From Candidatus Cloacimonadales bacterium (lineage in GTDB: Bacteria > Cloacimonadota > Cloacimonadia > Cloacimonadales > JAIOQZ01), in NCBI GenBank assembly GCA_963674825.1, contig OY771587.1, forward strand, positions 1,568,001 through 1,632,000: a stretch of DNA of 64,000 nt, in the 5' to 3' direction. How positions within the stretch are numbered: the stretch's first letter is position 1; the number at the start of each line of letters is the position of its first letter. Below the pieces are notes generated by a model. It made no database searches and was not told the origin of the DNA. It saw nothing but the letters and a program-made list of their open reading frames with translations. A program made the position numbers and the translations under genes. Of this stretch, positions 35,962 to 55,508 are shown piece by piece.

Positions 35962-36115
35962 GTTTTATTCTCCTTGAAATCTGGATCGATCGTCAGGTAT
36001 TTTGTTGCCGCACCCGCAAATCAGTGCAAGGAAAAAATCTGTTAACATCTTCTTCTTGACGCAAGTCGGTTTGTCGTAAAGCATGCCCGAAAACGATCCA
36101 GTAGGGGATACGAGC

Positions 36116-37472: not shown

Positions 37473-38204
37473 ATGGATAAACAACAGCCAATAGCACTCA
37501 TTACCGGCGCTGCCCGTGGTATCGGAGCAGCCATCGCCAAACAACTCAGCGCAGACGGTTATATTATCTGGGCAAACTACCGCAGCAACCACGAAGCAGC
37601 CAGCCTACTCAAGCAGGAAATCGAGGAACAAGGCGGACAGTGCGTGCTTGTTCCGTTCGATGTCGCCGACGAAGAGCAGGTCAATCAGGCGCTCTCTCCA
37701 CTTCTGGAGAACGCAACACCGGATGTCCTGGTCAATAACGCCGGCTTCAGCCGCGACAGCTTGATGGTTTGGATGTCGTCGGAAGACTGGCAGGCCGTCA
37801 CCGACGTTACCCTGCGCGGTTTCTTCCTGGTCACCAAGCAAGTCCTGCTGGGCATGATGAAGCAGCGCAAAGGTGTCATCGTCAACGTCGCCTCCACCGC
37901 GGGACAGAGCGGACTCGCCGGACAGGCAAACTATTCCGCCGCCAAAGCCGGGCTCATCGGCGCAACCAAGTCGCTTGCCAAAGAGGTTATCAAGCGTAAG
38001 GTGCGCGTCAACTGCGTCGCGCCGGGATTTGTCGAGACCGATATGACAAACGATCTCCCGGTTGACGAGATCAAGAAAACCATCCCCGCCGGAAGGTTCG
38101 GCAAAGTGGAAGAAATCGCCGGCGTGGTGAGCTTCCTATGCTCGGACGCAGCCGCCTATATCGTAGGCGAAACCATCTCCGTCAACGGCGGAATTTACAC
38201 CTGA
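37473..38204 (+). CDS. fabG: 3-oxoacyl-ACP reductase (cluster-specific FabG)
   Basis: TGAARGIG, LVNNAG, GQANYSAAK and VAPGFVETDM motifs. Confidence 0.92.
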   Translation: MDKQQPIALITGAARGIGAAIAKQLSADGYIIWANYRSNHEAASLLKQEIEEQGGQCVLVPFDVADEEQVNQALSPLLENATPDVLVNNAGFSRDSLMVWMSSEDWQAVTDVTLRGFFLVTKQVLLGMMKQRKGVIVNVASTAGQSGLAGQANYSAAKAGLIGATKSLAKEVIKRKVRVNCVAPGFVETDMTNDLPVDEIKKTIPAGRFGKVEEIAGVVSFLCSDAAAYIVGETISVNGGIYT

Positions 38205-38250
38205 TCAACGATTTTCGCATCAGCGGAATCCACATAGAAAGAGGTTGAAC

Positions 38251-39465
38251 ATGTACGATGTCGCGATCACCGGTATCGGTGTCGTATCTACCCTGGGAAC
38301 GGGAGTCGAAAAGGTAGCCCGTTCGCTGGAGCAGGGTAAAACTGGAGTAGGAATTGATCCGGAGCGCAAGGAACTCGGCTTCCGCAGCACGCTGACCGGA
38401 ATCATCGATGATTTCGAGCCACCGCAGATGCCGCGTAAACAGCGCAAGACGCTCAGCGATTTCGGCCTGCAAGGCTACGCAGCGGCGCTTGAAGCAGTCG
38501 AGATGGCGGGATGGAGTCAGGAAGATATCCAGACCAGCAGAACCGGCCTGATCATCGGAAACGATTCCTCCGCAATCGCAAATATAACACCTTACGAAGT
38601 TGTTATGCGGGAGAAATCAACGTTCCCGATCGGCGCGACGGTAATCTTCCAGGCGCTGACCTCCACCGTGACGATGAATCTCAATACACTTTTTGGAAAT
38701 CGCGGCGCGTCCTGGACCATATCGGGAGCATGCGCCAGTGGTGGACACGCTGTTGGGCAAGCAGCAGACCTGATCGCGCTTGGCAGGCAGGATCGAGTCA
38801 TATGCGGTGGCGTGCAGGAGATAAGCTGGCAATCGGTTTGCAGCTTCGATGCAACCAACGCCTTTTCCCTCCGTATGGACGAACCCGAGAAGGCGTGTCG
38901 TCCATTCGACAAAGACCGCGACGGCCTGATTCCCAGCGGTGGTGCAGCAATTGTCGCACTCGAGCGGGGCGATATCGCTCGAAAACGTGGTGCAAATATT
39001 CTCGGATGGGTACGTGGCTACGGATTCTCATCCGATGGGCAGAACCTCTCGGTTCCTTCCGGCGACGGCCTGCGGGACTGCATTAAACTCTGTCTCGAAA
39101 ACGCGAAGCTCAATCCTGATCAGATCGACTATATCAATGCGCACGCCACATCGACACCAGTCGGTGACGCCATGGAAGCACGCGCAATCGGCGAAGTTTT
39201 CGCCAACAGCAATCCGTGGGTATCATCAACCAAATCGATGACCGGCCACGAGATGTGGATGTCTGGTGCGGCACAGGTCGTTTACACGCTGCTTATGGCT
39301 CAAAATGGCTTCATTGCGCCCAATCTGAACTACACCACTCCAGATCCCGAAATGCCCACACTCAGGATCGCAAAGGAAACCATTGCGCTAAAACCGAGAC
39401 TGGCACTGCTCAACTCTGCCGGCTTCGGCGGAACGAATTCCTGTCTGATCATTGAGAGCGAATGA
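38251..39465 (+). CDS. Beta-ketoacyl-ACP synthase (FabB/F-like KS 1)
   Basis: GACASG (Cys), INAHATST (His), TKSMTGH (His), GFGG. Confidence 0.92.
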   Translation: MYDVAITGIGVVSTLGTGVEKVARSLEQGKTGVGIDPERKELGFRSTLTGIIDDFEPPQMPRKQRKTLSDFGLQGYAAALEAVEMAGWSQEDIQTSRTGLIIGNDSSAIANITPYEVVMREKSTFPIGATVIFQALTSTVTMNLNTLFGNRGASWTISGACASGGHAVGQAADLIALGRQDRVICGGVQEISWQSVCSFDATNAFSLRMDEPEKACRPFDKDRDGLIPSGGAAIVALERGDIARKRGANILGWVRGYGFSSDGQNLSVPSGDGLRDCIKLCLENAKLNPDQIDYINAHATSTPVGDAMEARAIGEVFANSNPWVSSTKSMTGHEMWMSGAAQVVYTLLMAQNGFIAPNLNYTTPDPEMPTLRIAKETIALKPRLALLNSAGFGGTNSCLIIESE

Positions 39466-40913
39466 GCAAATACGACAGTATCGTAATCGGCGCGGGTGCG
39501 AGCGGATGCGCCTCGGCGTTGCTTCTTGCCATGAACGGGCAGAAAGTCGCACTTGTGGAGTCCCACCGAACCCTGATGCCGCTGATCAAACGATTCAAGC
39601 GCCAAGGCTACTGGTGCGATCCCGGATTCCACTATACTGGCGGTTTGCATCACGATGGCAAGATGTCCGTTTACATGCGCTATATGGGGCTCGACAGCAT
39701 GATCCGGCCTGTCATGATGGATCAGGAATGCTTCGATATCATCCGCGTGAAGGATCGCGAATTTCGCATCCCGTGGGGTATGAAGCGATTACGAGACTAC
39801 CTTTGCTCAGAATTCCCAAAGTCAAGCGCTGCCATCAACACCTATCTCGACTATTTTCACGCGTTGAACGAAAACACCGCTTTCACAAACTACGATCTCC
39901 CCTATGGCACCTATCCTGATGAGATCATCGATTCGCGGAGCCTCTATCGATACCTGCGCGATCTTGGCGCTGAAAAGCAATTGATACAGCTCATCGGTGT
40001 CCACGGCAGCATCGTGTACGGTGCTGACTTGCTGGAAACTCCGGCGTTCATGAACGCTTATATCATGTGGTCGTTCTACAACGGCACCGGGACATTCATC
40101 AACGGCGGCGACGCGCTGGTTGATGCCTTTTCGAAGCGACTCAGCGAGGCCGGGGTAGATGTGTTTCTCGGTTCACCGGTGACGAAGGTCGATATCGATT
40201 CGCAACGTATATTCCGGGGTGTCGAGATCGCCGGAGAAACAATGCTTGAAGCCGATCATTGCGTCGCGAGTCTACATCCACAACGCCTGATGAACCTGAT
40301 CCCAGACCACGGCGTAAGGCCAGCATTCCGTAAAAGAGTGAACGGATTGCAAAACACCGCCTCATTTGCCACGATTTTTTATGGAACTACGATAATCCCC
40401 GAGCCGATCAAGCATGCGAACGAATACACATTTTCACCTGATCGCAAGGACGCTATGGACGGAACTTTCGCCATCATGAAAACCGATCCGGAGCAGAAAA
40501 ACGCGCTTACAGTAATACTTCCGATCAATTCAAATGAATTGGACGATTTATTCAATATTGACAGAAAAGAAGAACCTGAGAAATATCAATCCTTGAAAAA
40601 GGAGATCGGTAAACGGGCGGATCGTGCGCTTTTCCAACGGTTTCCGGAGCTGAAAGGCCATGCGGAAATACTGGATATTGCCACACCGGCAACCTACCAG
40701 CGCTACACTGGCACGCCTCGAGGAACCGCCTACGGTCTGAAGCAATCGAATCAGACCTTCTCGCTGACCACACGCACACCGGTACAGGGTTTGTTCCTTG
40801 CGGGACAAAGCTTGAGTCCGGGAGTACTTGGCGCGTTCGTGACAGGCTTCATGGCTACCGCATCGATCATAGATCCCGATCCGATCTGGAAGGAACTCAG
40901 AAAATGCAGATAA
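39462..40913 (+). CDS. FAD-dependent oxidoreductase, phytoene desaturase/retinol saturase-like
   Basis: IGAGASG Rossmann motif, DPGFHYTG, ATPATYQRYT..PRGTAYG, GLFLAGQS. Confidence 0.85.
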   Translation: MSKYDSIVIGAGASGCASALLLAMNGQKVALVESHRTLMPLIKRFKRQGYWCDPGFHYTGGLHHDGKMSVYMRYMGLDSMIRPVMMDQECFDIIRVKDREFRIPWGMKRLRDYLCSEFPKSSAAINTYLDYFHALNENTAFTNYDLPYGTYPDEIIDSRSLYRYLRDLGAEKQLIQLIGVHGSIVYGADLLETPAFMNAYIMWSFYNGTGTFINGGDALVDAFSKRLSEAGVDVFLGSPVTKVDIDSQRIFRGVEIAGETMLEADHCVASLHPQRLMNLIPDHGVRPAFRKRVNGLQNTASFATIFYGTTIIPEPIKHANEYTFSPDRKDAMDGTFAIMKTDPEQKNALTVILPINSNELDDLFNIDRKEEPEKYQSLKKEIGKRADRALFQRFPELKGHAEILDIATPATYQRYTGTPRGTAYGLKQSNQTFSLTTRTPVQGLFLAGQSLSPGVLGAFVTGFMATASIIDPDPIWKELRKCR

Positions 40914-42148
40914 ATCGAGTTGTAATAACCGGCATGGGGGCCGTATCTCCCTTTGGAGCAGGCGCAGATAAGATGTATGACAGTCTTTGCGCAGGCAAAA
41001 CCGGTGTTGTGAACCTGAAGAAGGAATGGCAAGAAATCGTATCCGACCTGGAATGCTGGGTCGGTGCACCGGTCATCGAAGAGCTCAATGAGAAAAAGAT
41101 CCCTCGTCGCTACCGTAAGCTGATGGGACGCACCGCGATCCTCTCGTACTTCGCAGCGCTGGAAGCGATCGAAAGCGCTGGAATCACCGATGAAATGCTT
41201 CGTTCGGGCGAAGTCGGCGTATGCTTCGGATCTTCGCTGGGCAGCATCCAGAGTACAGCGGAATTTTTCTCCGAAATCATCCGCACAAGCGAAAGCCATC
41301 AGCTCTCATCGGGGATGTTCTTTCAGGTGATGAGCCATACAGCGGCTGCAAACCTGGCGCATGTATTTGGAATTACCGGCAGGGTTCTGGCTGCAAACGC
41401 AGCCTGCGCATCTTCATTGCAATCGATTGGCGTAGCCTACGAGCAAGTTCGCTACGGGATGGCGGATATCATGATTTGCGGTGGTGCTGAAGAGCTTCAC
41501 GCCTACACCAGCACATCGTTTGACATCGTACAGGGAACCTCTACCCACTACAACGATAGCCCCTCCGATACACCTCGGCCATTCGACCGAGATCGTGACG
41601 GAACCGTTTGTGGAGAAGGCGCTGGTTGCCTGATCATTGAATCTGAGGAATCGGCGAAGAAGCGTGGCGCGACGATCCTGGCAGAGATAATAGGATTCCA
41701 AACATCTGCAAGCGGCGAACATATGTCCCATTCGAATGCGGAATCCATTGTATCCTGCATGCGTAAAACGCTCCAAAGCGCAGGAATCAATCCCGAAGAT
41801 GTAGATTATATCAACGCCCACGCGACCGCAACCGAACTTGGCGACCTTCACGAAGCTCAGGCGATCGAAGAGGTATTCAACGGGCATAAAATACCGGTCA
41901 GCAGCCTCAAGGGTTACATGGGTCACACACTTGGAGCCAGCGGAGCACTGGAGCTGATCGCATCGGTATTCATGATGCGAGATCAACAGATTCTCCCCAC
42001 ACGAAACCTGAGCAACCCGGACGATGCCGCCAAAAACTTGCGGCACGTGACCAGTATCGAGCCTGCGAAACTTGATATTATTCTAAAAAACAGCTTCGCC
42101 TTTGGGGGAATCAACACGGCACTATTGATAAGGAGTTATAAATCATGA
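40904..42148 (+). CDS. Beta-ketoacyl-ACP synthase (KS 2)
   Basis: AACASS, INAHATAT, LKGYMGHTLGA and FAFGGIN motifs. Confidence 0.92.
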   Translation: MQINRVVITGMGAVSPFGAGADKMYDSLCAGKTGVVNLKKEWQEIVSDLECWVGAPVIEELNEKKIPRRYRKLMGRTAILSYFAALEAIESAGITDEMLRSGEVGVCFGSSLGSIQSTAEFFSEIIRTSESHQLSSGMFFQVMSHTAAANLAHVFGITGRVLAANAACASSLQSIGVAYEQVRYGMADIMICGGAEELHAYTSTSFDIVQGTSTHYNDSPSDTPRPFDRDRDGTVCGEGAGCLIIESEESAKKRGATILAEIIGFQTSASGEHMSHSNAESIVSCMRKTLQSAGINPEDVDYINAHATATELGDLHEAQAIEEVFNGHKIPVSSLKGYMGHTLGASGALELIASVFMMRDQQILPTRNLSNPDDAAKNLRHVTSIEPAKLDIILKNSFAFGGINTALLIRSYKS

Positions 42149-42399
42149 ACGATGAAATGATTATGGAAAAAATTTCACGTATTCTGGTCGATGAATTTGA
42201 AATTGAAGAAGATAAGATCACGACGGAAGCGACGCTTTACGATGAACTGGGCCTGGATAGCCTGGACGGTGTGGATCTGATCGTTATGCTTGAAAACGAA
42301 TTTGGCTTCAAGGTCGATCGCAAGCAGGATGAAAGCGTCATTCGCGCAATGAGGAACGTACAGCACATCGTCGATTTCATCAAGCAAAAAGCTGCCTGA
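42145..42399 (+). CDS. Acyl carrier protein
   Basis: Acidic 84 aa protein; LGLDSLD phosphopantetheine Ser motif. Confidence 0.92.
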   Translation: MNDEMIMEKISRILVDEFEIEEDKITTEATLYDELGLDSLDGVDLIVMLENEFGFKVDRKQDESVIRAMRNVQHIVDFIKQKAA

Positions 42400-42420
42400 T
42401 TCTTCATCATAGAGCGGAAA

Positions 42421-43152
42421 ATGCCTCTTCTGCTGAATTTTTATTTTATTGTTGTACTCGCTCTCGTAAGCGCCGTGTTCGAGGTTTTATATCACCTGGC
42501 GGCGCCCATCATGATGCTTGTGAAAGGCTATCGGCGAGATGACATTTATCGCATCAAGAACGCCGTTTACGGAAAAATGATGGTACGGGCAAGCTGGCCC
42601 ATTCTGCGTGTCAAGATGAAAGGCGCACACCGGGTTCCGAAGAACCGTTCCTGCGTTTTTGTCTATAACCACCCCAGCATGATCGATGTTTTCTTCGCAG
42701 CGTTGGTCCCGCACAACAACCTGTTGGTGTTCGTGCGATCCTGGCCATTCAAGCTGAAGCTCTTCGGCTGGTCTATGAAGCTTGCGGACTACATCAACAG
42801 TGAAGCCACCACACACGATGAGCTTGTTGAGCGCGGCGTTAAACTGGCGGAGCGCAATGTTTCGTTCGTGGTATTTCCCGAAGGTCACCGTTCACGCGAT
42901 GGCAAGCTGCACCGATTCTATTCCGGCGCGTTCTATCTCTCCATCAATACCGGCTCACCGGTAATACCGGTTGTGATGTCCGGAGTCGAAAACTTTTTCA
43001 GCACGAAGTTCCCCTTCGTGCGACCGACGAATGTAACTATCGAGATGCTCGACCCTGTTTATCCCGAGAATTTTCAGGAGGGTCAACGTCACCTGGCCAT
43101 GCGTAAACACGTCGAAGGCATCTATCGAGAATATTTGGGAGAACCACTTTGA
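42421..43152 (+). CDS. PlsC-like lysophospholipid acyltransferase
   Basis: NHPSMID (HX4D) and FPEGHRS motifs; N-terminal TM. Confidence 0.88.
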   Translation: MPLLLNFYFIVVLALVSAVFEVLYHLAAPIMMLVKGYRRDDIYRIKNAVYGKMMVRASWPILRVKMKGAHRVPKNRSCVFVYNHPSMIDVFFAALVPHNNLLVFVRSWPFKLKLFGWSMKLADYINSEATTHDELVERGVKLAERNVSFVVFPEGHRSRDGKLHRFYSGAFYLSINTGSPVIPVVMSGVENFFSTKFPFVRPTNVTIEMLDPVYPENFQEGQRHLAMRKHVEGIYREYLGEPL

Positions 43153-44465
43153 ACCTGATCGCCGATTTCCCCGCTGGCAAGTACCGCGACATTCAATATT
43201 TGAGCCGCGATCAGCAAGACGCCATTACGCTGGAACTGCTTCGAGAGCACATCGCATATGCGGCAAAGAACAGTCCTTTTTACCAGCGGCTTGGCATCGA
43301 CAGCAATAATATCAGGGATTTCAGCGATATGCAGCTGATTCCCACCACTGAAAAACGCCACCTGACCGAGCAGAATCTCGATTTTCTGGCTGTTCCACGT
43401 GAAACCGTGACCGATGTCTGCATGACATCCGCCACCGTCGGCTCGCAACCGACCATGATCCTGCAAACCCCTTCCGATCTCGCGCGCCTCGCGCACAACG
43501 AGGAGATCGCGTTCGGCATCTCCGGCCTCGGAAGTAATGACATCCTGGCTATCGGCGCAGCCATCGACCGCTGTTTCATGGCAGGCCTGGCATACTATCT
43601 GGGCGCACAGCGTATGGGCGCGACCGCTGTCCGCATCGGAGCTGGAAGCGCGGCGCAGCATTGGGAGCTGATCAAGACAACGGATGCAACAGCCATCGTA
43701 GGCGTACCATCCATGATGCTCAAGATCGCTCAGTACGCGCAGGAAGCAGGAGATGACCCAGCTTCGAGCACCGTCAGGAAGCTGCTCGCCATCGGCGAAC
43801 CGACGCGCGACGCCGGGCTGGAATTACTGCCTCTCGGCAAGCTGCTGGAAGAGACATGGCAAGCACCGCTCTATTCCACCTACGCTTCCACCGAAATGGC
43901 TACCTCATTCAACGAATGCGACGCCCGATGCGGAGGCCACCTTCGTCCCGAACTGGCCTACATGGAGATCCTCGACGATGATGGGAAACCAGTTCCACAA
44001 GGCGAGACAGGCGAAGTGACCCTTACACCGCTTGGTGTAAAAGGAATGCCGCTGATCAGGTTCCGCACCGGCGATATAGCCTACATGATCGACGAACCAT
44101 GCTCTTGCGGCAGAACTTCTCGGCGCATATCCCCGGTAGTGGGACGCAAGAACCAGATGCTGAAATACAAGGGAACGCTGATGTTCCCCAACGCCGTGAT
44201 GTCCGCTGTGGAAGGCCTGGATGGATTTCTGGAAGGCTATGTTACGGCGAAGTGCGATTCGCATGGAAACGACCTGGTGACGCTTTGCGCGGCGATTGAT
44301 CCCGCAAGGCTCTCGCTCGAAACCATGCGCCAGAGGCTACAGTCAAAGATCCGTGTGGTACCGCAGATCGAGCTGATGACCGAAGATGCTATTAGAGAAA
44401 AAGTATATCTGCCCGGAAAACGTAAACGGGTAATCTTTCACGATTACAGGAGTAACAATGAATGA
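43149..44465 (+). CDS. Phenylacetate-CoA ligase (PaaK)-family aryl-CoA/ACP ligase
   Basis: SPFY, MTSATVG, IGEP, TYASTE, PLIRFRTGD, CSCGR. Confidence 0.88.
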   Translation: MNLIADFPAGKYRDIQYLSRDQQDAITLELLREHIAYAAKNSPFYQRLGIDSNNIRDFSDMQLIPTTEKRHLTEQNLDFLAVPRETVTDVCMTSATVGSQPTMILQTPSDLARLAHNEEIAFGISGLGSNDILAIGAAIDRCFMAGLAYYLGAQRMGATAVRIGAGSAAQHWELIKTTDATAIVGVPSMMLKIAQYAQEAGDDPASSTVRKLLAIGEPTRDAGLELLPLGKLLEETWQAPLYSTYASTEMATSFNECDARCGGHLRPELAYMEILDDDGKPVPQGETGEVTLTPLGVKGMPLIRFRTGDIAYMIDEPCSCGRTSRRISPVVGRKNQMLKYKGTLMFPNAVMSAVEGLDGFLEGYVTAKCDSHGNDLVTLCAAIDPARLSLETMRQRLQSKIRVVPQIELMTEDAIREKVYLPGKRKRVIFHDYRSNNE

Positions 44466-46041
44466 CACGATCGTATTAACTGGCTACGATTTATCTATAG
44501 ACGAGATCGTCGCGATCGGACGCGGCGAAAAGAAAGTGAGCATGGAACCGCGCGCCTTGCAGCGTTGCGAAGCCTCGAGGAAGTTCCTGGAAGAAGAGAT
44601 TTCCAAGCAACGCGTCATCTACGGCGTAAACACCTCGTTCGGCCCCATGTGCAACAAAATCATCGACCACAACCACATCGAAACCCTGCAAGCCAACCTT
44701 ATCCGCAGCCATGCGGCCGGACTGGGCGAACCGCTCAATCCGGATGTCGCACGGGCCGTCTTCGCAGTGCGTTTGAACACATTGGTCAAAGGCTACGCAG
44801 GTGTCCGCATCGAACTGCTGGAACTGCTGGAAGGCATGATCAACGCCGGCATCGCACCATGGATTCCCGAGTGTGGAAGCGTAGGAGCATCGGGCGATCT
44901 GGTCCATCTGGCGCACATGGCGCTTTCGATCATCGGTGAAGGAAACGTGTGGTTTGATGACAGGGTAATCCCAGCGGAGTTGGCGCTGAAACAGTGCGAT
45001 CTGGAACCGCTGAACCTCAGCTATAAGGAAGGCCTTGCGCTGATCAACGGAACCGCCGCCATGACCGCCATCGCCGCTTTCGCTATCCACGACGCCAGAA
45101 AATCGATCGATATCGCCTGCCTGAACGCGGCATTCGCAATCGAGATTTTCGGCGGGATCGACGACGCATTCGACCGGCATCTGCATGCGGTCAAGCCGCA
45201 TCCGGGGCAAGTCTGGATCGCGGATCGTATTCGCGGACTCTACAAGGGCTCGGAAAACATCACCCTGCGCGAAAACATGCACGAGATTATCCGCAGCAAG
45301 CAGAAGGGCGACGAGCAAGTATTCGAGACCGATATCAACGTGCAGGATGTCTATTCAATTCGCTGCACGCCGCAGATACTGGCACCGGTGCAGGAAGCGA
45401 TCGAATTCACATCCGAAACCGTGATGCGTGAGGCAAACTCGTCCAACGACAACCCGATTATTATCCCCGAGAAACGAAAGATCATCCACGGCGGTAACTT
45501 CCATGGACAGAGCATCAGCTTCGCCATGGATATGCTCGCAATTGCTGTCTCAACCATGTGCAACCTCTCCGAACGCCGGCTGAACAAGCTGCTCGATCGC
45601 AACCTCAACGAAGGTCTGCCAGAGCATCTCATTCCGGGTACGGTGGGCCTTACGATGGGGTTCATGGGTGCACAGTACCTCTCCACTTCCACAACGGCGG
45701 AGAACCGCCAGATGGCAGCACCGGTCAGCACCAATACAATCTCCTGTAATGCCTCCAACCAGGACGTCGTCAGCATGGGGACCGTCTCGGCACGCAGAAC
45801 CTACCGCATGCTCAAGAATGCCTCCTATGTCTTGACGATGGAAACGCTGGCAGATATGCAAGCGCTTTCGTTCCGCAACGCCGATAAGCTCGGCGGGAAA
45901 ACCGGCAGGATTTACGGTGAACTTCAGAAACACTTCCGGGTTTACGATAACACACGCATTTTCCATGAAGATCTGGCAGCCTTCAAGCACCTGATATTCA
46001 AAGAAATCGACTTGAGTGGCATGCTGGAAGCAAAAGAATGA
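44458..46041 (+). CDS. MIO-dependent aromatic amino acid ammonia-lyase (HAL/TAL family)
   Basis: IYGVNTSFG, GSVGASGD (Ala-Ser-Gly MIO), EGLALING, YSIRC.PQ, GGNFHG, NQDVVSMG. Confidence 0.93.
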   Translation: MNDTIVLTGYDLSIDEIVAIGRGEKKVSMEPRALQRCEASRKFLEEEISKQRVIYGVNTSFGPMCNKIIDHNHIETLQANLIRSHAAGLGEPLNPDVARAVFAVRLNTLVKGYAGVRIELLELLEGMINAGIAPWIPECGSVGASGDLVHLAHMALSIIGEGNVWFDDRVIPAELALKQCDLEPLNLSYKEGLALINGTAAMTAIAAFAIHDARKSIDIACLNAAFAIEIFGGIDDAFDRHLHAVKPHPGQVWIADRIRGLYKGSENITLRENMHEIIRSKQKGDEQVFETDINVQDVYSIRCTPQILAPVQEAIEFTSETVMREANSSNDNPIIIPEKRKIIHGGNFHGQSISFAMDMLAIAVSTMCNLSERRLNKLLDRNLNEGLPEHLIPGTVGLTMGFMGAQYLSTSTTAENRQMAAPVSTNTISCNASNQDVVSMGTVSARRTYRMLKNASYVLTMETLADMQALSFRNADKLGGKTGRIYGELQKHFRVYDNTRIFHEDLAAFKHLIFKEIDLSGMLEAKE

Positions 46042-46048
46042 GGAGACA

Positions 46049-46912
46049 ATGATACCGATTGAGTTTCCAGTTGATGCACTGAAATTGATACCACAGCGCG
46101 GAAAGATGAAATTGATCGATGAACTACTGCGCGTTTCGGAAGAAGAAGCCTGCACGTGCTCTGACATGACCGATAAAACGATGTTTCTGACCCCCTCCGG
46201 GCATATTCTCCCGGCAGCGCTCGTTGAGCTGTCAGCACAATCAACCGCGTGCTATTCGGGATATATATCGATCCTGGAGGATGCCTCCGGTCAGCACTCT
46301 GGCTTGCTGGTGGGTATTCAGAATTTCGTCATCGAGGAAATCCCCGTGGCAAGTGAAGAGTTGTCAGTAGAGATCCATCAGGAAAGTGCTATCGGGCCAT
46401 TCAGTGTCCATGGGATATCCGTATTTTCGAATCAGACACAGATAGCCAGCGGTGCACTCAAGACTTGGGAAGTCACCGAATCGATGGAGAAAATCGATAT
46501 CGAGATGCAAGCAGTCGGCAATCCGGTTCTGGAAGCTCATTCCAGCGATCTTGCGCCTATCGAGCACGACATTCTGAGAAGTGTTGTATCCATCGGCAAG
46601 CAGGATGACCACATCCGCGCACGCCTTTGCTATCGGCTTGATTTCATGGGATTCGACGGACATTTTCCCGAGTTTCCAGTACTACCCGGCATTCTCATTC
46701 TGCAAACCGCTGAGACAATTTGCTCGCAACAATTGAACTACCTCTACCGCATCAAGTCGATTGGAAACGCCAAGTTCGCTAAATTGATATTGCCAGGTGA
46801 GGAGATCGATTACGACATCGTATTGAAGCGCGGAGAAGAGGATATCACTGCCCTCGTGCGTGTTTACGGCGGCAACGAATTGAAGGCCAGATTTTCCCTG
46901 ACGCTGGCGTAA
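46049..46912 (+). CDS. Double hot-dog 3-hydroxyacyl-ACP dehydratase (ApeP-like + ApeI/FabZ-like fusion)
   Basis: N-half LIPQRGKMKLID...VELSAQ; C-half FDGHFPEFPVLPG; ATG 46049 with AGGAG. Confidence 0.8.
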   Translation: MIPIEFPVDALKLIPQRGKMKLIDELLRVSEEEACTCSDMTDKTMFLTPSGHILPAALVELSAQSTACYSGYISILEDASGQHSGLLVGIQNFVIEEIPVASEELSVEIHQESAIGPFSVHGISVFSNQTQIASGALKTWEVTESMEKIDIEMQAVGNPVLEAHSSDLAPIEHDILRSVVSIGKQDDHIRARLCYRLDFMGFDGHFPEFPVLPGILILQTAETICSQQLNYLYRIKSIGNAKFAKLILPGEEIDYDIVLKRGEEDITALVRVYGGNELKARFSLTLA

Positions 46913-46925
46913 GAGAGTTATTTAT

Positions 46926-47399
46926 ATGAGTCGCAGAAGTAAAAAACAATATTTCCCGCAGGAACCCGGCGCCCCCGAACCCCTGATCGCCGAATGCACG
47001 CGCATCGTGCGTTTTGAGGAGGTCGATCCGTTGACAATCGTCTGGCATGGTCGCTACCCCAGCTTTCTGGAGGATGGACGAGCCGCGTTCGGCATCAAAT
47101 ACAATATGGGTTATATGGACATGTACAAGGCCGGATTCCTGGCCCCGATCGTCCAGATGCACATCGACAACCACAATCCGCTGCAGTTTGGCGAGGAATT
47201 CCTCATTCGCGCCCGGCTCCACTGGACGCAGGCAGTTCGGATGAACTTCAGCTACGAACTGCTCAAGGACGGCAATATCCCGGTCGCTACCGGGTATACG
47301 GTGCAGCTTTTCACTGATCTCAACCGAAATGTGATGCTGGTCAGGCCCGATTATATCGAGGATTTCATGCGTGACTGGCAGGAAGGACTGTTAGCGTGA
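46926..47399 (+). CDS. Acyl-CoA/ACP thioesterase (4HBT/YbgC hot-dog family)
   Basis: VRFEEVDPLTIVWHGRYPSFLEDGR motif. Confidence 0.88.
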   Translation: MSRRSKKQYFPQEPGAPEPLIAECTRIVRFEEVDPLTIVWHGRYPSFLEDGRAAFGIKYNMGYMDMYKAGFLAPIVQMHIDNHNPLQFGEEFLIRARLHWTQAVRMNFSYELLKDGNIPVATGYTVQLFTDLNRNVMLVRPDYIEDFMRDWQEGLLA

Positions 47400-49234: not shown

Positions 49235-49238
49235 TACT

Positions 49239-50501
49239 ATGAAATTCAAACTTATATATCCGAAATGGCGTAAACTCGAGATGCAGACACCATTCTTTCT
49301 TCCGCCGCACGGCCCGGTCGTAATGGCTGCCGAAGTGCCGGAAGATGTCGAAATCGAATTCACTGACGACAACGTGCAGGACTTGGTTCTGGATGACTCA
49401 CCCGATCTGGTGGGACTTTCTGTCATGCTCACAGCGCAGCTTCCCAGAGCGTTCGAGATCGCAAAACACTACCGCGACCGCGGTATCCCCGTCATGGCGG
49501 GTGGTATCTCGGCGAATCTCCATTCGGAAGAGCTCAGAAAGCATGTCGATTCCATCTTCCTGGGGGAAGTAGAAGGCAGACTTGGCAAGGTCTTCGACGA
49601 TCTCAAGAACGGGCAATTGAAACCAGTGTACGACTACCATCTCGATTTTCCGCCCATCGAGTCCATTGGAACCGCTCGGCGCGAGATCCTGGACCACAGC
49701 AAGTACGTCTATCGCGGCACCAAAATGCTCGATCTGATTCACGCCTCGCGCGGCTGCCGGTTCAATTGCTTCCCGTGCTGCACGCCGTATCTGGGTGGTC
49801 GGCAATTCCGCCCGAGACCGATTGAAAACGTCATCGAGGAGATGAAAGCGATCGACAATAACCGCCTATTCATCGTGGATAACTCACTGGCGCAGGACTC
49901 TAACTGGGAAAAAGAGCTCTTCAAAGCGATGATTCCCATCAAGAAGAAATTCGTAAGCCATCCCATCGAACGCAACGACGAGATCCTCGAGCTCGCATAT
50001 CAGGCTGGTGCATGGTACGTCTATCAGGCGGTGTTCGATACTTCCGATTTCATCCGCGAAACCATCCGCATGTACAAGGATCATGGCATCGGCATCGAGG
50101 GAACCATCATTCTCGGTACCGACGATCAGGATGTGGACACCATCAAGCGGCTCGTCGATTTCCTGCTCGAAGTGGAGATGGACACTGCTGAATTCACAAT
50201 ACTCACACCGTTCATGCACACTCCGATCCGTACGCAGCTCGAAAAAGAAGGCCGACTGCTCTCCAATGGATGGGAAGATTATACTTGCGATCGCGTCGTT
50301 TTCAAACCCAAGAAAATGACGACAACCCAGCTTCAGGATATGTATTATTACGCGTGGGAAACCTTCTATCAGGATGAATCGCAGGAATTGAAGATGGGCA
50401 AGCTCTTCCACAAGCTGGTGCAACGTGAAATTGCAGACGGCACCTATGCGCGTCCAAGCCTTTCCGGCAGTCGCAGACGTGGAGCAAACCAAACGACATG
50501 A
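49239..50501 (+). CDS. Cobalamin-binding radical SAM protein 1
   Basis: N-terminal Rossmann-like domain (PDLVGLS...GG...GEVE); SRGCRFNCFPC; ILTPF..TP. Confidence 0.85.
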   Translation: MKFKLIYPKWRKLEMQTPFFLPPHGPVVMAAEVPEDVEIEFTDDNVQDLVLDDSPDLVGLSVMLTAQLPRAFEIAKHYRDRGIPVMAGGISANLHSEELRKHVDSIFLGEVEGRLGKVFDDLKNGQLKPVYDYHLDFPPIESIGTARREILDHSKYVYRGTKMLDLIHASRGCRFNCFPCCTPYLGGRQFRPRPIENVIEEMKAIDNNRLFIVDNSLAQDSNWEKELFKAMIPIKKKFVSHPIERNDEILELAYQAGAWYVYQAVFDTSDFIRETIRMYKDHGIGIEGTIILGTDDQDVDTIKRLVDFLLEVEMDTAEFTILTPFMHTPIRTQLEKEGRLLSNGWEDYTCDRVVFKPKKMTTTQLQDMYYYAWETFYQDESQELKMGKLFHKLVQREIADGTYARPSLSGSRRRGANQTT

Positions 50502-51844
50502 TACTGCTGATTTCCTGCAACACAACCACCGAACCCTATCCGGTCTATCCGCTGGGTATGGCGATGATCGCACATGCCGCTGAGGATGCCGGATTTGACG
50601 TAATCCAGCGCGATATCCTGGTCGCAGAAGACTGGCAAGCGGAAATCCGCGAGCTGATCGAACAGAACGATCTGCTCCTGATCGGGCTTTCCATACGCAA
50701 TGTTGACGACGTCAACTACTGCAAGGGCGATGTATATTTCGACCACTATCGCCAGATCGTGCAATTCATCCGGCAGTACACCGACAAACCCATCGTACTC
50801 GGTGGTTCGGGCTACTCGATCTTCCCAAATGAGATGCTCGAAATGAGCGGTGCCGACTACGGTATCGTGGGTGAAGGCGAAAAGGTATTCGTCGAGCTGG
50901 CAAAGGCGATCAGCAGCGGCAATCCGCCATCTGAGACCATCCTGCGCGGTTCGAGCTACATCCAGCCAGACGAACTGATCCCCACCCGTCGAGATCCGAA
51001 GCTTGCCGAGTTTTATCTCATGCGTGGTGGTATGCTGAATGTGCAGAGCAAGCGCGGGTGTCCACATCGCTGCATCTATTGCTCCTATCCCGTGCTGGAA
51101 GGCGTTCAATATCGGTTTCGCTCGGCAAAGGACGTCGTGGACGAGATCGAGCAACTGAAAACCGATTACAATGCCGACTATCTTTCTTTCACCGACTCGG
51201 TATTCAATGACGCGCGCGGTAACTATCTCTCCATCGCGGAGGAACTTGTGCGTCGCCAGAATAAGACGCCGTGGATGGCTTTTTTCCGTCCTGCCGATTT
51301 CACGCCAGACGAAGTCGATCTGCTGAAACGATCTGGTTTGCATGCTGTGGAATGGGGAACAGACGCTTCCTCCGACGCAACACTGGACGGACTGAAGAAG
51401 GACTTTACCTGGGCTCAGGTACAGCATTCCAACCGGTTGTTCGCGGAATCCGGCATTCAGAACGCACATTTCGTGATGTTCGCCGGACCGAACGAGACAC
51501 CGGAGACAGTCGAAGAGGGAATCCGCAATATCGAAGCGCTAACCGATTGCGTGGTCTTCGCCGGTATCGGGTTGCGCGTGTTCCCGGATACGCCTATCTG
51601 GAAGACACTGACAGAGCAAGGCATAATCTCAGCGCAACAGAACATCCTCGATCCCTACTGGTACTTTTCGCCGCACATCGATCGCGAATGGCTCCACCAA
51701 AGACTGCTGGAAGCGTTCAAAGACCGAAAGGATCGCATCTATCCCGACGGCGAACAGCTCGATATGATCAAGGCATTCCACAACATGGGCTATCGCGGCC
51801 CCATCTGGAACTTGATCCTCTCGCACAACAGAACCAGGCGGTAA
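50498..51844 (+). CDS. Cobalamin-binding radical SAM protein 2 (resembles the lipid biosynthesis B12/rSAM family)
   Basis: PYPVYPLG, IGLSIRNVD, LGGSGYS, GEGE, KRGCPHRCIYC, TDSVFN. Confidence 0.88.
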   Translation: MILLISCNTTTEPYPVYPLGMAMIAHAAEDAGFDVIQRDILVAEDWQAEIRELIEQNDLLLIGLSIRNVDDVNYCKGDVYFDHYRQIVQFIRQYTDKPIVLGGSGYSIFPNEMLEMSGADYGIVGEGEKVFVELAKAISSGNPPSETILRGSSYIQPDELIPTRRDPKLAEFYLMRGGMLNVQSKRGCPHRCIYCSYPVLEGVQYRFRSAKDVVDEIEQLKTDYNADYLSFTDSVFNDARGNYLSIAEELVRRQNKTPWMAFFRPADFTPDEVDLLKRSGLHAVEWGTDASSDATLDGLKKDFTWAQVQHSNRLFAESGIQNAHFVMFAGPNETPETVEEGIRNIEALTDCVVFAGIGLRVFPDTPIWKTLTEQGIISAQQNILDPYWYFSPHIDREWLHQRLLEAFKDRKDRIYPDGEQLDMIKAFHNMGYRGPIWNLILSHNRTRR

Positions 51845-51845
51845 C

Positions 51846-53291
51846 ATGAACGAGCGCGCATTATACTTAATTCACCCGCTGGGCGAAAACTGGATGCCTG
51901 GCGAAATCGATATGTCACGGGTGGCGAACATCATGCCACCGCTGGGCCTGTGCAGCATTTCCGCATGGATGGAGCAGCACGGCTGGCAAACCGAAATCTA
52001 TGATTGCTACGCCTTCCCGGGCGACGATAAACGACTTTTCCAGCAACTCGAACGCGATAAACCCATGTGGATCGGCTTCAGCACCACCACATCCAGTTTC
52101 CCGGACGCGATCCGTCTGGCGAACCACTGTCGCGAGATCCTGCCTGAAGCGAAGATCGTCTTCGGTGGTGTGCATGTTTCCGCACTACGAGAACAACTGA
52201 TGAACGAATTCTACGTCATCGATTACTGCGTGGTGGGCGAAGGCGAACAGACGCTGCTCGAACTGGTCGAATGCAACGACGAGGATCTTTCGCACATTCA
52301 AGGACTCATCTGGCGCGACGGCCACGAGGTGATCTTCAATGGTCATCGCGAAAAGCTGCTCGACCTCGATACCCTTCCGATCCCGTCATACAACAAGCTT
52401 CATGGCTTCCCCGAGGCTTACAAGCTACCGATTTTCAACTATCCCAAGGCCCCCGGAACGACCATCATCACCAGTCGCGGGTGCCCCTTCCGATGCTCCT
52501 ATTGCGATCGCTCGGTGTTCCAGAGCTCGTATCGCTACAACTCCGCAGACTACATCCTCAAGATGATGCAATACTTGCACGACACCTACGGGATGCGGCA
52601 CGTGAACATCTACGACGATACTTTCACGCTCCAACGCAAGCGGATCGAGGAATTTTGCCACAAGAAGATCGCCTCCGGACTCAAGATGACCTTCAATTGC
52701 GCCGCACGCGCGGAGCAGGTCGATCCCGAACTGCTCAAGCTGTTGAAGAAAGCCGGGTGCTGGATGATCAGCCTCGGCATCGAGACTGGCGATCCAGACC
52801 TACTCAGAAAGCATCGCTACTACGGTGGGAAAATACCCGAGGACGCTCTGCAGATGAATCGCGACGCCGTAAAAATGATCCGCAAGGCCGGTATCCGCGC
52901 CAAGGGTCTCTTCATGCTGGGACTTCCCGGCGAGACGGATGAGAGCATCGAACGCAGCATCCGCTACGTGCTGAGCCTGCCGCTGGATGACTTCAATCTG
53001 GCCAAGTTCACTCCATTCCCGGGATCACCCGCCTACCAGACGATCCACGAATTTGGCGAGTTCGACGAAGACTGGTCGCTCATGAACGCGCTCAATTTCG
53101 TTTTCGTGGCGCATGGCTTCACCAAAGAACGCCTGGAAGCGCGCCACCGGGAGTTTTATCGCCGCTACTATCAGCGCCATAAAGTGATGTGGAACTACGT
53201 CACCATGCTGTGGAAATCACCCGATAGCTGGCGAAGATTCCTGAAAGACCTCTCCGTCTTCCTCAGCTTCCGCAAGCAGTACGAGAAGTAG
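51846..53291 (+). CDS. Cobalamin-binding radical SAM protein 3 (class B methyltransferase-like)
   Basis: PPLGL, FGGVH, GEGE, TSRGCPFRCSYC, DDTF, GIETG, FMLGLPGET, TPFPGS. Confidence 0.9.
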   Translation: MNERALYLIHPLGENWMPGEIDMSRVANIMPPLGLCSISAWMEQHGWQTEIYDCYAFPGDDKRLFQQLERDKPMWIGFSTTTSSFPDAIRLANHCREILPEAKIVFGGVHVSALREQLMNEFYVIDYCVVGEGEQTLLELVECNDEDLSHIQGLIWRDGHEVIFNGHREKLLDLDTLPIPSYNKLHGFPEAYKLPIFNYPKAPGTTIITSRGCPFRCSYCDRSVFQSSYRYNSADYILKMMQYLHDTYGMRHVNIYDDTFTLQRKRIEEFCHKKIASGLKMTFNCAARAEQVDPELLKLLKKAGCWMISLGIETGDPDLLRKHRYYGGKIPEDALQMNRDAVKMIRKAGIRAKGLFMLGLPGETDESIERSIRYVLSLPLDDFNLAKFTPFPGSPAYQTIHEFGEFDEDWSLMNALNFVFVAHGFTKERLEARHREFYRRYYQRHKVMWNYVTMLWKSPDSWRRFLKDLSVFLSFRKQYEK

Positions 53292-53295
53292 TAAA

Positions 53296-54570
53296 ATGAG
53301 TGCATCTGACATCCGAATCCTGATCGTGATCCCGGTTTACAACAACGCCGCTACGATCGCGGACGTGGCCCGACGCGCCATGCAAACCGGCTATCCGGTA
53401 CTGGTCGTCGATGATGGCTGTACGGATGGGGGGATAGAGAAGTTACGAGTTACAAGTAACGAGTTACAGAGTGATAACCCCCCTTTATCCCCCCTTGTCA
53501 GGGGGGTGAGAGAGGATTCTCCGTGCCCTCGCCCGTTTACGGAAGAGGGATGGGGTGAGGGTCTCATTATCACTGGATTCGAGCAGAATCGCGGTAAAGG
53601 CGCTGCCATCATGGAAGGCAATCGTTGGGCGATGGAGCATGGTTTCACGCACATCCTGACCATCGACGCCGACGGACAGCACCATCCCGAAGAGATCCCG
53701 CAATTCGTCGAAGCAGCTACTCGTTCTCCCCTATCTATCGTGATCGGAACCCGGGATTTCAACAGCGATGACGTCCCCGGATCGAGCAAATTCGGGCGTA
53801 AATTCTCCAACTTCTGGATCCGCGTCTGCACCGGGCAATCTGTCTCCGATAGCCAGAGTGGCTACCGTGTCTATCCCTGCGAAGCGCTTGAGCTATTGAA
53901 AATTAAAGGCCGACGATACAACTTCGAGGTGGAAGTTATCGTGCGCGCCATCTGGGCGGGACTGGAGATCAGCGAAGTACCGATCAAGGTCGAATACGCA
54001 GACCGCGTCACCCATTTCCATCCTTTCAAGGACAACGCCCGAATCTCTTGGACATACACCCGCCTGGTACTGCGAAACTTCCTGCCGTTACCGCACAAGC
54101 TGCTCTTCGGCAAGAAGCGCGAGAACCAGTTCAAGCTTTACCTGACCAATCCCTGGAAGACGCTCAAGATGCTCTTCACCGAACGCCTGGCTCCATCCGA
54201 ACTGGCGCTGGCAGTGGGTACCGGCGTCTTTCTGGCGACGTTTCCGCTGATCGGTTTCCACGGCGTAGCCATCGTATTCGTCGCCACACGTATCAAGGTA
54301 AACCGGCTTGTAGCACTCAGTATGAACCATTTTTGCGGCCCACCATTCGTTCCGGCACTCTCCATACTGATCGGATACTATGTGCGCAACGGACGCTTCC
54401 TAACCGAATTTACCTGGGAGACGCTTGGCCATCAGATCTTACAGCGATTAGGTGATTACATTGTCGGCTCGGCGGTTCTAGCGCCATTTCTGGCCATAGC
54501 ATCCGGTTTGAGCATCATGGGCGCGACATGGCTCTACCAGAAGATCACGCGACGAGGCAGCAATGTCTGA
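53296..54570 (+). CDS. GT2 glycosyltransferase fused to a DUF2062-like membrane domain
   Basis: VIPVYN, VDDG, NRGKG, DADGQH, DSQSGYR; hydrophobic C-terminal domain starting ELALAVGTGVF. Confidence 0.85.
   Translation: MSASDIRILIVIPVYNNAATIADVARRAMQTGYPVLVVDDGCTDGGIEKLRVTSNELQSDNPPLSPLVRGVREDSPCPRPFTEEGWGEGLIITGFEQNRGKGAAIMEGNRWAMEHGFTHILTIDADGQHHPEEIPQFVEAATRSPLSIVIGTRDFNSDDVPGSSKFGRKFSNFWIRVCTGQSVSDSQSGYRVYPCEALELLKIKGRRYNFEVEVIVRAIWAGLEISEVPIKVEYADRVTHFHPFKDNARISWTYTRLVLRNFLPLPHKLLFGKKRENQFKLYLTNPWKTLKMLFTERLAPSELALAVGTGVFLATFPLIGFHGVAIVFVATRIKVNRLVALSMNHFCGPPFVPALSILIGYYVRNGRFLTEFTWETLGHQILQRLGDYIVGSAVLAPFLAIASGLSIMGATWLYQKITRRGSNV
53441..53561. repeat. Composite repeat insert within the GT2 gene: 4 x heptamer (AGTWACR) plus two purine/pyrimidine palindromes
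   Basis: AGTTACG AGTTACA AGTAACG AGTTACA (53441-53468); CCCCCCTTTATCCCCCCT-TGTC-AGGGGGG (53478-53506); CCCTCGCCCGTTTACGGAAGAGGGATGGGGTGAGGG (53526-53561). Confidence 0.75.
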
Positions 54571-55462
54571 ACGAAAGAAATCACCAAATTACGGCGGAAA
54601 ACTGGGCTACGGATTCTTCCATATTCTTATACGGCTGCTGGGACCTTATCCGGCATACTTTTTCGCAGCATTTATAATACCGTATTACCTTGTAAAAGTG
54701 TGGCTTACTCAGTCATCTCCTCGATTTTACCTTGAGCACAGGTTCCCAAAAAAGTCAAAACTCGCGCGGTTTTTTCTGGGTAGTAAACACATCTACGAGT
54801 TCTCAAAAATACTGATCGATCAGGCCTGCATGGGCATCCTCGGTCCGGGAAAATTCAAGATCGAATTTACCCACTGGAACGCCCTCTACGAGCTTTCGAA
54901 GGAAGAAAAAGGCATGGTGCTTCTGACAAGTCATTGCGGAACCTGGCTCGCCGCCATGGCATCCATGGATCACCTGGAGAAGCCGGTCAATTTTCTCCTG
55001 CGCTTGCAAGAGCACGACCGCGGCAAATATTTCTTTGATCTCGCGCGGGAAAAGGGGATCAAGATCATTTCACCCGACGGTATGTTCGGTGGATTGGTGG
55101 AATCGATCAACATGCTTCAGAAAGGTGAATGCGTGTCCATCATGGGTGACCGTGCCTGGGGAGCCCGTACAAAAGACACGAAGTTTCTGGGCGAGGACGC
55201 CGCATTTCCCATCACACCCTACTATCTTTCGGTGACCGGCGAAGCAAGGCTGGTGATGTTTCTGACCGTGCGTACAGGGCCGCTCTCGTTCCGTATCGAC
55301 CACTACGTACTCACAGACGAGATTGACCAGAATCTGCAAAAGGACGCCAAGCTCGACGCCCTCATGAGGCGATACGTTGATCATCTGGAAGAATACGTAA
55401 CCAGTTATCCGTTCATGTGGCTCAATTTCTTCGATTTCTGGAGCGAGGATAAGACGTCTTAA
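54563..55462 (+). CDS. LpxL/HtrB-like (lipid A-type) acyltransferase
   Basis: N-terminal membrane segment, LLTSHCGTW, IMGDR, FLGEDAAFP, YPFMWLNFFDFW. Confidence 0.8.
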   Translation: MSERKKSPNYGGKLGYGFFHILIRLLGPYPAYFFAAFIIPYYLVKVWLTQSSPRFYLEHRFPKKSKLARFFLGSKHIYEFSKILIDQACMGILGPGKFKIEFTHWNALYELSKEEKGMVLLTSHCGTWLAAMASMDHLEKPVNFLLRLQEHDRGKYFFDLAREKGIKIISPDGMFGGLVESINMLQKGECVSIMGDRAWGARTKDTKFLGEDAAFPITPYYLSVTGEARLVMFLTVRTGPLSFRIDHYVLTDEIDQNLQKDAKLDALMRRYVDHLEEYVTSYPFMWLNFFDFWSEDKTS

Positions 55463-55482: not shown

Positions 55483-55508
55483 AAAAAAGGCGATCCCTAA
55501 GGACCGCC
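55483..55508 (-). terminator. Rho-independent terminator, strongest on the minus strand
   Basis: Minus strand GGCGGTCC-TTAG-GGATCGCC-TTTTTT. Confidence 0.7.

Follow-up and report, generated by a model that had tools for sequence, protein, structure and literature searches.

A putative flexirubin-like lipid pathway with B12 radical enzymes, spread over four genomic loci in a Cloacimonadota genus

A 64,000-nucleotide stretch of the genome of Candidatus Cloacimonadales bacterium (contig OY771587.1, positions 1,568,001 to 1,632,000 of the forward strand; hereafter the window) carries at positions 37473-55462 a 16-gene operon with three radical S-adenosylmethionine (SAM) enzymes that depend on cobalamin (B12), rSAM1, rSAM2 and rSAM3. 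It appears fairly probable that this operon is the largest of four loci making a flexirubin-like outer-membrane lipid, a tyrosine-derived hydroxyphenyl-polyene that would be ring-methylated by rSAM2 and joined to a ring made by DarB and finished by a fourth B12 radical SAM enzyme, rSAM4. Judged from sequence, the gene set is flexirubin/aryl-polyene-like and not ladderane-like, and its likely product would be a hydroxyphenyl-polyene with a methylated ring, attached to the ring that DarB makes, to a glycolipid, or to both. The four-locus anatomy, the exchange of DarA for rSAM4 and the assignment of rSAM2 to the type of TsrM (a tryptophan 2-C-methyltransferase) are new here, while the cluster family itself is already known. 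Neither the exchange nor the TsrM likeness was met in the literature searched, which was thin on subscription papers. That literature also gives no described product for the family (the available part of PMC3543383 is silent on the cluster), in line with the initial annotation, which could match the pathway to no characterised compound.

The source genome, G000, is a single contig (C1) and 99.6% complete; G001-G003 are three other genomes of the same genus. Other genomes carry G numbers (C after G denoting a contig) and metagenome loci L numbers. Family labels rest on Pfam and NCBIfam models with curated bit-score cut-offs, and each gene label in the operon is backed by them. The 16 open reading frames run in one direction, overlap at nine of 15 junctions (spacing -26 to +40 nt) and are kept gene for gene in all three other genomes of the genus, at 56-93% identity. 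The co-directional arrangement, order and overlaps described by the initial annotation are confirmed; rSAM1, rSAM2 and rSAM3 each have a B12 domain and a CxxxCxxC motif. The genes are as follows.

37473..38204, +, ketoreductase (KR), a FlxB/FabG-like short-chain dehydrogenase/reductase; best NCBIfam model FlxB, 308 bits (cut-off 340); FabG PRK05653.1-5, 275 bits (above 273)
38245..39465, +, KS1, FabB-like ketosynthase (KS); Cys-His-His intact
39462..40913, +, flavin adenine dinucleotide (FAD) oxidoreductase, phytoene-dehydrogenase-like; PF01593; CrtD 106 bits, far below cut-off
40904..42148, +, KS2, ketosynthase predicted to be active; Cys-His-His intact; PDB 7F27 331 bits, 4EWG 293, 4XOX 239
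42145..42399, +, ACP1, acyl carrier protein (ACP); PF00550; PRK05350 69.8 bits (above 65)
42421..43152, +, PlsC-type acyltransferase with a putative ApeD-like role; PF01553
43149..44465, +, aryl-CoA ligase, FlxY/PaaK-like; best family FlxY, 441 bits (cut-off 520); PaaK 132-151
44458..46041, +, methylidene-imidazolone (MIO) aromatic amino-acid lyase/mutase, likely tyrosine-directed from its motif residues; PF00221; best PDB match tyrosine aminomutase, 330 bits
46016..46912, +, double hot-dog dehydratase (DH); FabA/FabZ match in the C-terminal half
46926..47399, +, hot-dog thioesterase with a putative ApeK-like role; PF13279
47396..49234, +, fused KS-chain-length factor (CLF), 612 aa; N-half with Cys-His-His, C-half CLF-like without the two His
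49239..50501, +, rSAM1, B12 radical SAM enzyme; PF02310 and CxxxCxxC
50498..51844, +, rSAM2, TIGR04072 family, TsrM-like, predicted aromatic C-methylase; 553 bits (above 360); TsrM 6WTE at E 1.3e-50
51846..53291, +, rSAM3, B12 radical SAM enzyme, BchE/HpnJ-like by score; BchE 199 and HpnJ 185 bits, both below cut-off
53296..54570, +, family 2 glycosyltransferase (GT2) fused to DUF2062; PF00535 and PF09835
54563..55462, +, LpxL-family acyltransferase; PF03279

The nearest solved relative of KS2, 7F27, is presumably ApeR of an aryl-polyene pathway, and a PDB search with the FAD oxidoreductase gave no match. Each half of the dehydratase matches a separate open reading frame in L111 and L147, and the KS-CLF fusion is represented by two genes in most relatives.

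Related clusters on metagenome loci run on past the LpxL-like gene with ACP-KS-CLF, plus LolA and MMPL. Searching G000 with the genes of these loci located a second locus (C1:1757896-1763930), ACP2-KS3-CLF2-LolA-DUF3261-MMPL, in the gene order of the closest relative, L106. The third locus (C1:360540-364228) consists of darG, darH, an ATP-binding cassette (ABC) ATPase, a permease and ACP3, scoring 138.5 for DarG_fam (cut-off 70) and 470 for DarH (cut-off 300), and the fourth (C1:3716515-3719765) of rSAM4, darB and a class I methyltransferase gene (C1:3719016-3719765). This DarB passes the StlD/DarB model NF005293 (540 bits, cut-off 450), stays below the narrower NF053539 (455 against 550) and aligns over its full length with StlD 5GK0 at 409 bits. 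The methyltransferase gene follows darB in all four genomes of the genus; in the other darB loci examined, a search of the surrounding 1.5 kb gave no match to it. Together the four loci hold four KSs with Cys-His-His, two CLFs and three ACPs. They are present in 4/4 genus genomes, loci 2-4 being intact and separate in G001-G003 as well. Two sister-genus genomes yielded neither KS3 orthologues nor DarH, and DarB was found in none of 17 relatives outside the genus. DarA had no match in G000-G003 with one query, and an 11-sequence profile reached a best E of 0.18 in G000.

Components of the four loci are joined in other bacteria. In G430 (C64) the genes from KR to LpxL, ACP2-KS3-CLF2, darG-darH-ABC-permease-ACP3 and rSAM4-darB form one cluster on one strand, the ligase and lyase not being there, and in G322 (C99) a single cluster extends from KS1 through MMPL to rSAM3-darA-darB-darG-darH. 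In G432 only the methyltransferase and DarA are missing; its rSAM4-darB pair sits on another contig, and its DUF3261 gene is unconfirmed. For a wider view, 251 genomes were sampled from the phylum of G233 (Geobacter), which we take to be Desulfobacterota. An rSAM1 orthologue (48-72% identity) occurs in 32 of them, many being drafts, and darB in 17, of which 15 also have rSAM1. Fisher tests (p 1e-13 and 8e-5) overstate, the genomes being kin, and are not relied on. Within the Cloacimonadota sample (232 genomes), rSAM2 is found in five, of which four belong to the genus and the fifth has a distant copy with 33% identity. Scanning genome contigs with rSAM2 alone returned mostly distant B12 enzymes, with more than 50% identity in one of 80 loci, and no close rSAM1 was found in genomes of the family of G232. 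In favour of the flexirubin-like reading, three of the genes score best with FlxB, FlxY and LolA2, and DarG_fam, DarH and StlD/DarB are above cut-offs.

The initial annotation had seen a candidate for an undescribed system, standing alone without dialkylresorcinol genes (DarAB), LolA/MMPL exporter, conventional SAM methyltransferase or second ACP. These absences hold for the window, that of the methyltransferase for the operon by Pfam scan, and that of DarA extends to the four genomes of the genus. By contrast, the genome carries darB and the class I methyltransferase in locus 4, LolA, DUF3261 and MMPL in locus 2, and ACP2 and ACP3 in loci 2 and 3. Since the modules lie elsewhere in G000, the absences are mostly a window effect, and the stand-alone description is not supported; the family, present in 32 of the 251 Desulfobacterota, was moreover noted in 2009 (PMC2649909, available part). 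The core set of aryl-polyene (ape) clusters, namely KS, ACP, CLF, DH, KR and transporter (10.1101/2020.12.19.423268), is complete only when locus 2 is added, as no transporter was found in the window operon. Because the pathway is spread over four places, judging such clusters from one locus misleads.

Another main finding concerns the gene before darB. DarA was searched for with L228:5390-6307, from a Bacteroidota cluster in which it lies upstream of darB and in which FlxY, DarB and DarG score above their cut-offs; Atlas neighbours of this query are named DarA at 0.97, and NCBIfam gives weak flavodoxin matches. Among the 17 darB genomes of the Desulfobacterota sample, 11 have DarA, six have rSAM4 and none has both. 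DarA immediately precedes darB in 10/17 and rSAM4 in 6/17, the remaining locus being at a contig edge with a DarA fragment on another contig. The six rSAM4 genomes show no DarA match genome-wide, and matches to rSAM4 above 430 bits in the 251 genomes are confined to them, 18 others scoring at most 256 bits in genomes without darB. Sampling of the class of G233 (201 genomes) gave a DarB-family match in 38. The best 30 DarB loci (nine further matches left out; one of the 30 repeats G432) have rSAM4 upstream in 29, two of these cut by the contig start, and DarA in none, while one ends early. In an unrooted tree of 51 DarBs (quick IQ-TREE), DarA-linked and rSAM4-linked proteins are parted by one branch (SH-aLRT 96), which argues that the split is probably a single exchange.

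DarA aromatises the carboxy-cyclohexanedione that DarB makes (PMC6836626, PMC13748660), a product obtainable in vitro from N-acetylcysteamine (SNAC) thioesters (PMC13748660). As rSAM4 stands in the place of DarA before darB, and the substrate of DarA is known, the simplest reading is that rSAM4 likely takes over this step and acts on the carboxy-cyclohexanedione. DarA-less DarBs of cyanobacteria, with products unknown, are mentioned in a review whose available text does not contain the term 'radical SAM' (PMC6836626). In alignment, the lower-axial position of rSAM4 is occupied by Val and by neither Arg nor Trp, and its AlphaFold model (predicted local distance difference test, pLDDT, 90.7) resembles OxsB, MgmA, TsrM and AprD4 alike, methylases and non-methylases both. 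Non-methylating, oxidising B12 radical enzymes exist, for example BchE (PMC9204698, in part), and we lean towards oxidation of the DarB product to a resorcinol, in preference to methylation, as the reaction of rSAM4. Two residues past the lower-axial Val, residue 79 is an invariant Cys (60/60 aligned sequences), at the position of the cobalt-proximal Trp76 of TokK. A named homologue of rSAM4 (53%) comes from the isolate Geoalkalibacter halelectricus.

At the starter step, the lyase has the residues ASG144-146, S84-H85, Y407 and N434-Q435, the Ser-His pair being like that of histidine ammonia-lyase (HAL) and Gln standing against Glu in the two other lyases of G000; we assume which position the second motif occupies. 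It passes no NCBIfam cut-off (FlxA 469 bits, below 700). The mixture of ASG, Ser-His and Gln has been reported for FlxA, a proven tyrosine ammonia-lyase (PMC3992019, in part). Chain building appears to have its own enzymes: in a FastTree phylogeny of 76 rows, each cluster KS falls with orthologues of other clusters, in supported groups away from FabF of G000, and KS3 and the fused KS fall together with the ketosynthases of the Bacteroidota FlxY/DarA/DarB cluster. The housekeeping type II fatty-acid synthase (FAS II) of G000 is a separate plsX-fabH-fabD-fabG-fabF set (C1:3228557-3233904), and the distance between the cluster KSs and FabF, the check that the initial annotation had proposed, points to a dedicated pathway. 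No enoyl reductase is found among the 16 operon genes, and an ACP synthase gene is present in G000. In L107 (3167-4249), L138, L166, L176 and L178 the PaaK-like ligase is followed, at the place of the lyase, by a SPASM radical SAM gene, and a close lyase was found in none of nine loci with a SPASM gene. The starter step may thus have seen another exchange, between SPASM enzyme and lyase, in which the anammox-type locus L178 would share.

Of the three operon enzymes, rSAM2 alone passes the TIGR04072 model 'rSAM_ladder_B12' (553 bits, cut-off 360); rSAM1 (44) and rSAM3 (91) fall below it and pass no NCBIfam model. Searched against the PDB, a profile of 49 rSAM2 homologues finds TsrM 6WTE first (E 1.3e-50, the next at 2e-20), and this is the best solved relative. 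TsrM sets Arg69 of its G-x-S-x-R motif below the cobalt (PMC9204698, in part); the aligned Arg67 of rSAM2 is kept in 49/49 homologues, the common motif being G-x-S/T-x-R. The two differ in that TsrM has D-S-E-F-N and rSAM2 D-S-V-F-N, with a shorter C-terminus and a lipid-cluster context. The ring methyl of flexirubin is methionine-derived (PMC3992019, in part), and rSAM2 would, by homology, methylate an electron-rich ring carbon in like manner. The rSAM3 gene lies directly before darA-darB in G285, G322 and G356. G000 has a cobalamin riboswitch, CobS was not found in it, and B12 is likely imported. The gene behind a cobalamin riboswitch at C1:3481201-3481388 (-) encodes a predicted secreted protein longer than 400 aa, a candidate B12-capture protein.

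Comparison with known systems places the pathway beside several of them. The flexirubin genes of Chitinophaga pinensis (flxA-Y and darAB) and Flavobacterium johnsoniae (Fjoh_1078-1110; PMC3992019, in part) have in common with the four loci a start, putative in the latter, by ammonia-lyase and CoA-ligase, several KSs, KR, DH, thioesterase, acyltransferase and glycosyltransferase, as well as LolA, an exporter, DarB, DarG and DarH, and in C. pinensis the polyene and dar genes are at separate loci, as here. In contrast, the present pathway has no DarA, four B12 radical SAM enzymes, a fused KS-CLF and a host of anaerobic lineage, with most genes below flexirubin-specific cut-offs; as DarA is missing and the product is a prediction from the genes, it is not filed as flexirubin. 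In E. coli CFT073 and Xenorhabdus doucetiae, the ape clusters share KS, CLF, at least two ACPs, DH, KR, MMPL-type transporter, LolA, DUF3261, PlsC, GT2 and thioesterase, here spread over four loci. They use a 4-hydroxybenzoate starter and the class I ring methyltransferase ApeB, whereas here the starter apparently comes from the ammonia-lyase, B12 enzymes are in the operon and a dar module is added. DarAB/StlCD dialkylresorcinol systems match in DarB and have the flavodoxin-like aromatase DarA at the position of the B12 radical SAM enzyme. Celluxanthenes, aryl polyenes of anaerobes, were rejected as a match, being products of a type I polyketide synthase (PMC12144888, in part).

The link to the Kuenenia/Desulfotalea island drawn in the initial annotation is borne out through TIGR04072 in rSAM2. 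The orphan FAS II/radical SAM clusters of Desulfotalea psychrophila (compared by description), Geobacter and Kuenenia (kuste3335-3352; PMC2649909) share with the operon and its partners TIGR04072, a PaaK-like ligase, a flavoprotein resembling phytoene dehydrogenase, divergent KS/CLF, MMPL and a glycosyltransferase. The available part of the 2009 report describes clusters shared by Kuenenia and Desulfotalea, mentions that Geobacter and Pelobacter have comparable clusters, and states that D. psychrophila yielded no ladderanes (Rattray 2009, PMC2649909). The gene order of L178 is that of kuste3335-3352 as tabulated in PMC4790861 (in part), and its methyltransferase matches anammox AmxMT1 8HD2 at 461 bits. 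Window proteins are 20-41% identical to those of L178, which has a SPASM enzyme in contrast to the lyase and dar module here; the Desulfobacterota clusters of G285, G322 and G432 are much closer, at 40-70%. Kuenenia genes expressed heterologously are reported to give no new lipid, and the phytoene-desaturase-like proteins no substitute for CrtI (PMC4790861, in part). 'Ladderane' clusters of unknown function have been reported in non-anammox genomes (PMC9902471, in part).

Two features of the relatives stand beside these comparisons. Many carry a gene for a PagL-like outer-membrane deacylase beside the second KS-CLF pair (L111:17203-18003, L147:17574-18161, L158:13368-13970), and the L147 copy has no match in G000. 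A second, compact cluster type with a single B12 enzyme (lyase-KR-KS-ACP-LpxL-rSAM2-thioesterase-KS-CLF-ACP-KS-CLF-LolA-GT2-MMPL) occurs at G199:C111 (L215), L164, L170 and L181, one copy belonging to another Cloacimonadota family.

In the proposed pathway, the lyase and the FlxY-like ligase would supply a 4-coumaroyl thioester, by homology with their relatives, which KS1, KS2, KS-CLF and KS3-CLF2 would extend on ACP1 and ACP2 with KR and DH; with no enoyl reductase in the 16 genes, the double bonds would stay. A ring carbon may then be methylated by rSAM2, with further changes by rSAM1, rSAM3 and the flavoenzyme. From two acyl-ACPs, DarB would by its family function condense a carboxy-cyclohexanedione, which rSAM4, judged by position, may oxidise to a resorcinol or methylate. 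DarH may move the polyene onto the DarB ring, PlsC, GT2-DUF2062 and LpxL may also build a glycolipid anchor of the aryl polyene lipid (APEL) type, and MMPL, LolA, DUF3261 and the ABC pair may carry out export. In this form, what the initial annotation proposed is supported, a type II polyene pathway primed by an aryl unit and tailored by B12 radical enzymes, the KSs standing apart from FabF; for radical cyclisation, the annotation's other suggestion, nothing points toward the ladderane type, the 'ladderane' enzyme rSAM2 being TsrM-like. A wider proposal is put forward tentatively, as possible rather than probable: that rSAM4 is a non-homologous replacement of DarA by radical oxidation to the resorcinol and, with the TsrM-like methylase and two more B12 enzymes, would define a new class of methylated flexirubin-type outer-membrane lipid that this Cloacimonadota genus shares with Desulfuromonadia and syntrophs.

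Several observations weigh against this reconstruction. The best solved relatives of the lyase are aminomutases (tyrosine aminomutase at 330 bits), lyase substrates are described as unpredictable from sequence (PMC3992019, in part), and a close lyase orthologue occurs in two of the 34 Desulfobacterota genomes picked for rSAM1 or darB, so an aryl starter is not a constant of the family. None of the flexirubin-specific cut-offs, namely those for FlxA, FlxB, FlxY, LolA2, flexirubin DarG and resorcinol DarB, is reached. In rSAM2, Val (46/49) or Thr (3/49) stands at the position of the TsrM Glu, which binds the cluster's unique iron and blocks radical chemistry (PMC9204698, in part), and the mechanism of rSAM2 may differ from that of TsrM. 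The best family of rSAM4 is the methylase HpnR, at 181 bits (cut-off 650). The DarA/rSAM4 split is one branch of a quick tree, hence one event against many independent ones, and 11 genomes within this phylum, itself largely anaerobic, use DarA; the idea that anaerobiosis forces rSAM4 was rejected on this ground, for lack of oxygen does not compel the replacement there. Finally, darB was not detected in 17 of the 32 rSAM1 genomes, and the G000 operon is nearest to DarA-type genomes (G285, G322, G356) whereas its DarB is of the rSAM4 type, which makes the pathway a mosaic.

This mosaic leaves room for two products, an unlikely though not negligible reading in which the operon and the export locus make an APEL-type polyene glycophospholipid, and darB-rSAM4 with darG/darH a free cyclohexanedione or resorcinol, the modules travelling together unjoined. 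Besides the mosaic itself, including the rSAM1 genomes without detected darB, the distance between the four loci in G000 and the presence of PlsC, GT2, thioesterase, LolA, MMPL and DUF3261, the attachment and export set of APEL (PMC8253772; 10.1101/2020.12.19.423268), speak for it. However, the modules form a single co-directional cluster in G430 and G322, DarH (a BtrH-type acyltransferase) lies within 1.5 kb of darB in eight of the 11 DarA-type Desulfobacterota loci, and all four loci have an identical, genus-restricted distribution.

Less likely still, the product is a reduced, methyl-branched or cyclised acyl chain and no aryl polyene, remodelled by the flavoenzyme, rSAM1 and rSAM3, with the MIO enzyme giving a beta-amino-acid starter or being optional. 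The aminomutase likeness and rarity of the lyase would fit, as would its replacement after the ligase by a SPASM gene (five loci) or a dehydratase (four loci, two on the same contig), the far greater constancy of rSAM2 (30/34) and rSAM3 (26/34), and the best scores of rSAM3 with the non-methylases BchE and HpnJ. Yet the lyase adjoins the ligase, whose best family is FlxY, KS-CLF pairs with KR and DH and no enoyl reductase are a polyene signature, and the fused KS and KS3 keep the company of KSs from the Bacteroidota FlxY/DarA/DarB cluster. That ladderane or other cyclobutane lipids are made here, outside anammox bacteria, is very improbable: although rSAM2 passes the ladderane-named model and has a homologue (36%) in L178, with its Kuenenia-like order and AmxMT1-like methyltransferase, the host, going by the names of its RarA relatives, belongs to Cloacimonadota and not to the anammox planctomycetes, rSAM2 is TsrM-like, the L178 KSs fall apart from those of the window (FastTree), and D. 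psychrophila has the shared island with no ladderanes detected (PMC2649909, in part). The favoured candidate is moreover another locus, the conserved and highly expressed Cluster I, kuste3603-3608 (10.64898/2026.05.19.726425, in part).

Around the operon, a family 4 glycosyltransferase (GT4) gene lies upstream on the same strand across a 169 nt gap.

36083..37303, +, GT4 glycosyltransferase, membership in the operon uncertain

It is kept at 57-64% identity in the genus, its other matches among all loci compared being one unrelated locus. A scan for promoter-like sites (8 against 15.3 expected) and terminator-like sites (24 against 19.2) was uninformative. Directly past the operon, a 12-pair hairpin (55485-55512) with a T-run on the minus strand may stop transcription from either side. 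A predicted secreted protein family without Pfam match has three copies in G000, a tandem pair of lower GC 4.4 kb past the operon (window 59911-61257 and 61254-62510) and a third, 76% identical, 2.6 kb before locus 2 (C1:1754005-1755267); the family is possibly a trace of the rearrangement by which the cluster was split. Positions 1-29000 hold ordinary-looking genes that we take, from their first residues, to be GreA, RecN, enolase, NAD kinase and NadD-like, with two large presumed surface proteins at 6356-9496 and 10513-14685. Elsewhere in the genome, C1:1971717-1971811 is a tRNA-Sec gene.

Anaerobes commonly carry such clusters, as 32 of the 251 Desulfobacterota genomes do; many are annotated as 'ladderane', and since 2009 the family has been without a product. 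The DarA/rSAM4 exchange names a substrate for rSAM4, the DarB product, and for rSAM2 the TsrM likeness points to a class of substrates; the exchange thereby makes a direct test possible, the first one for this widespread family. A radical aromatase would be new B12 chemistry, and a methylase would give a new ring-methylated lipid; if the wider proposal is true, the methylated flexirubin-type reading would provide a product class for many non-anammox 'ladderane' clusters.

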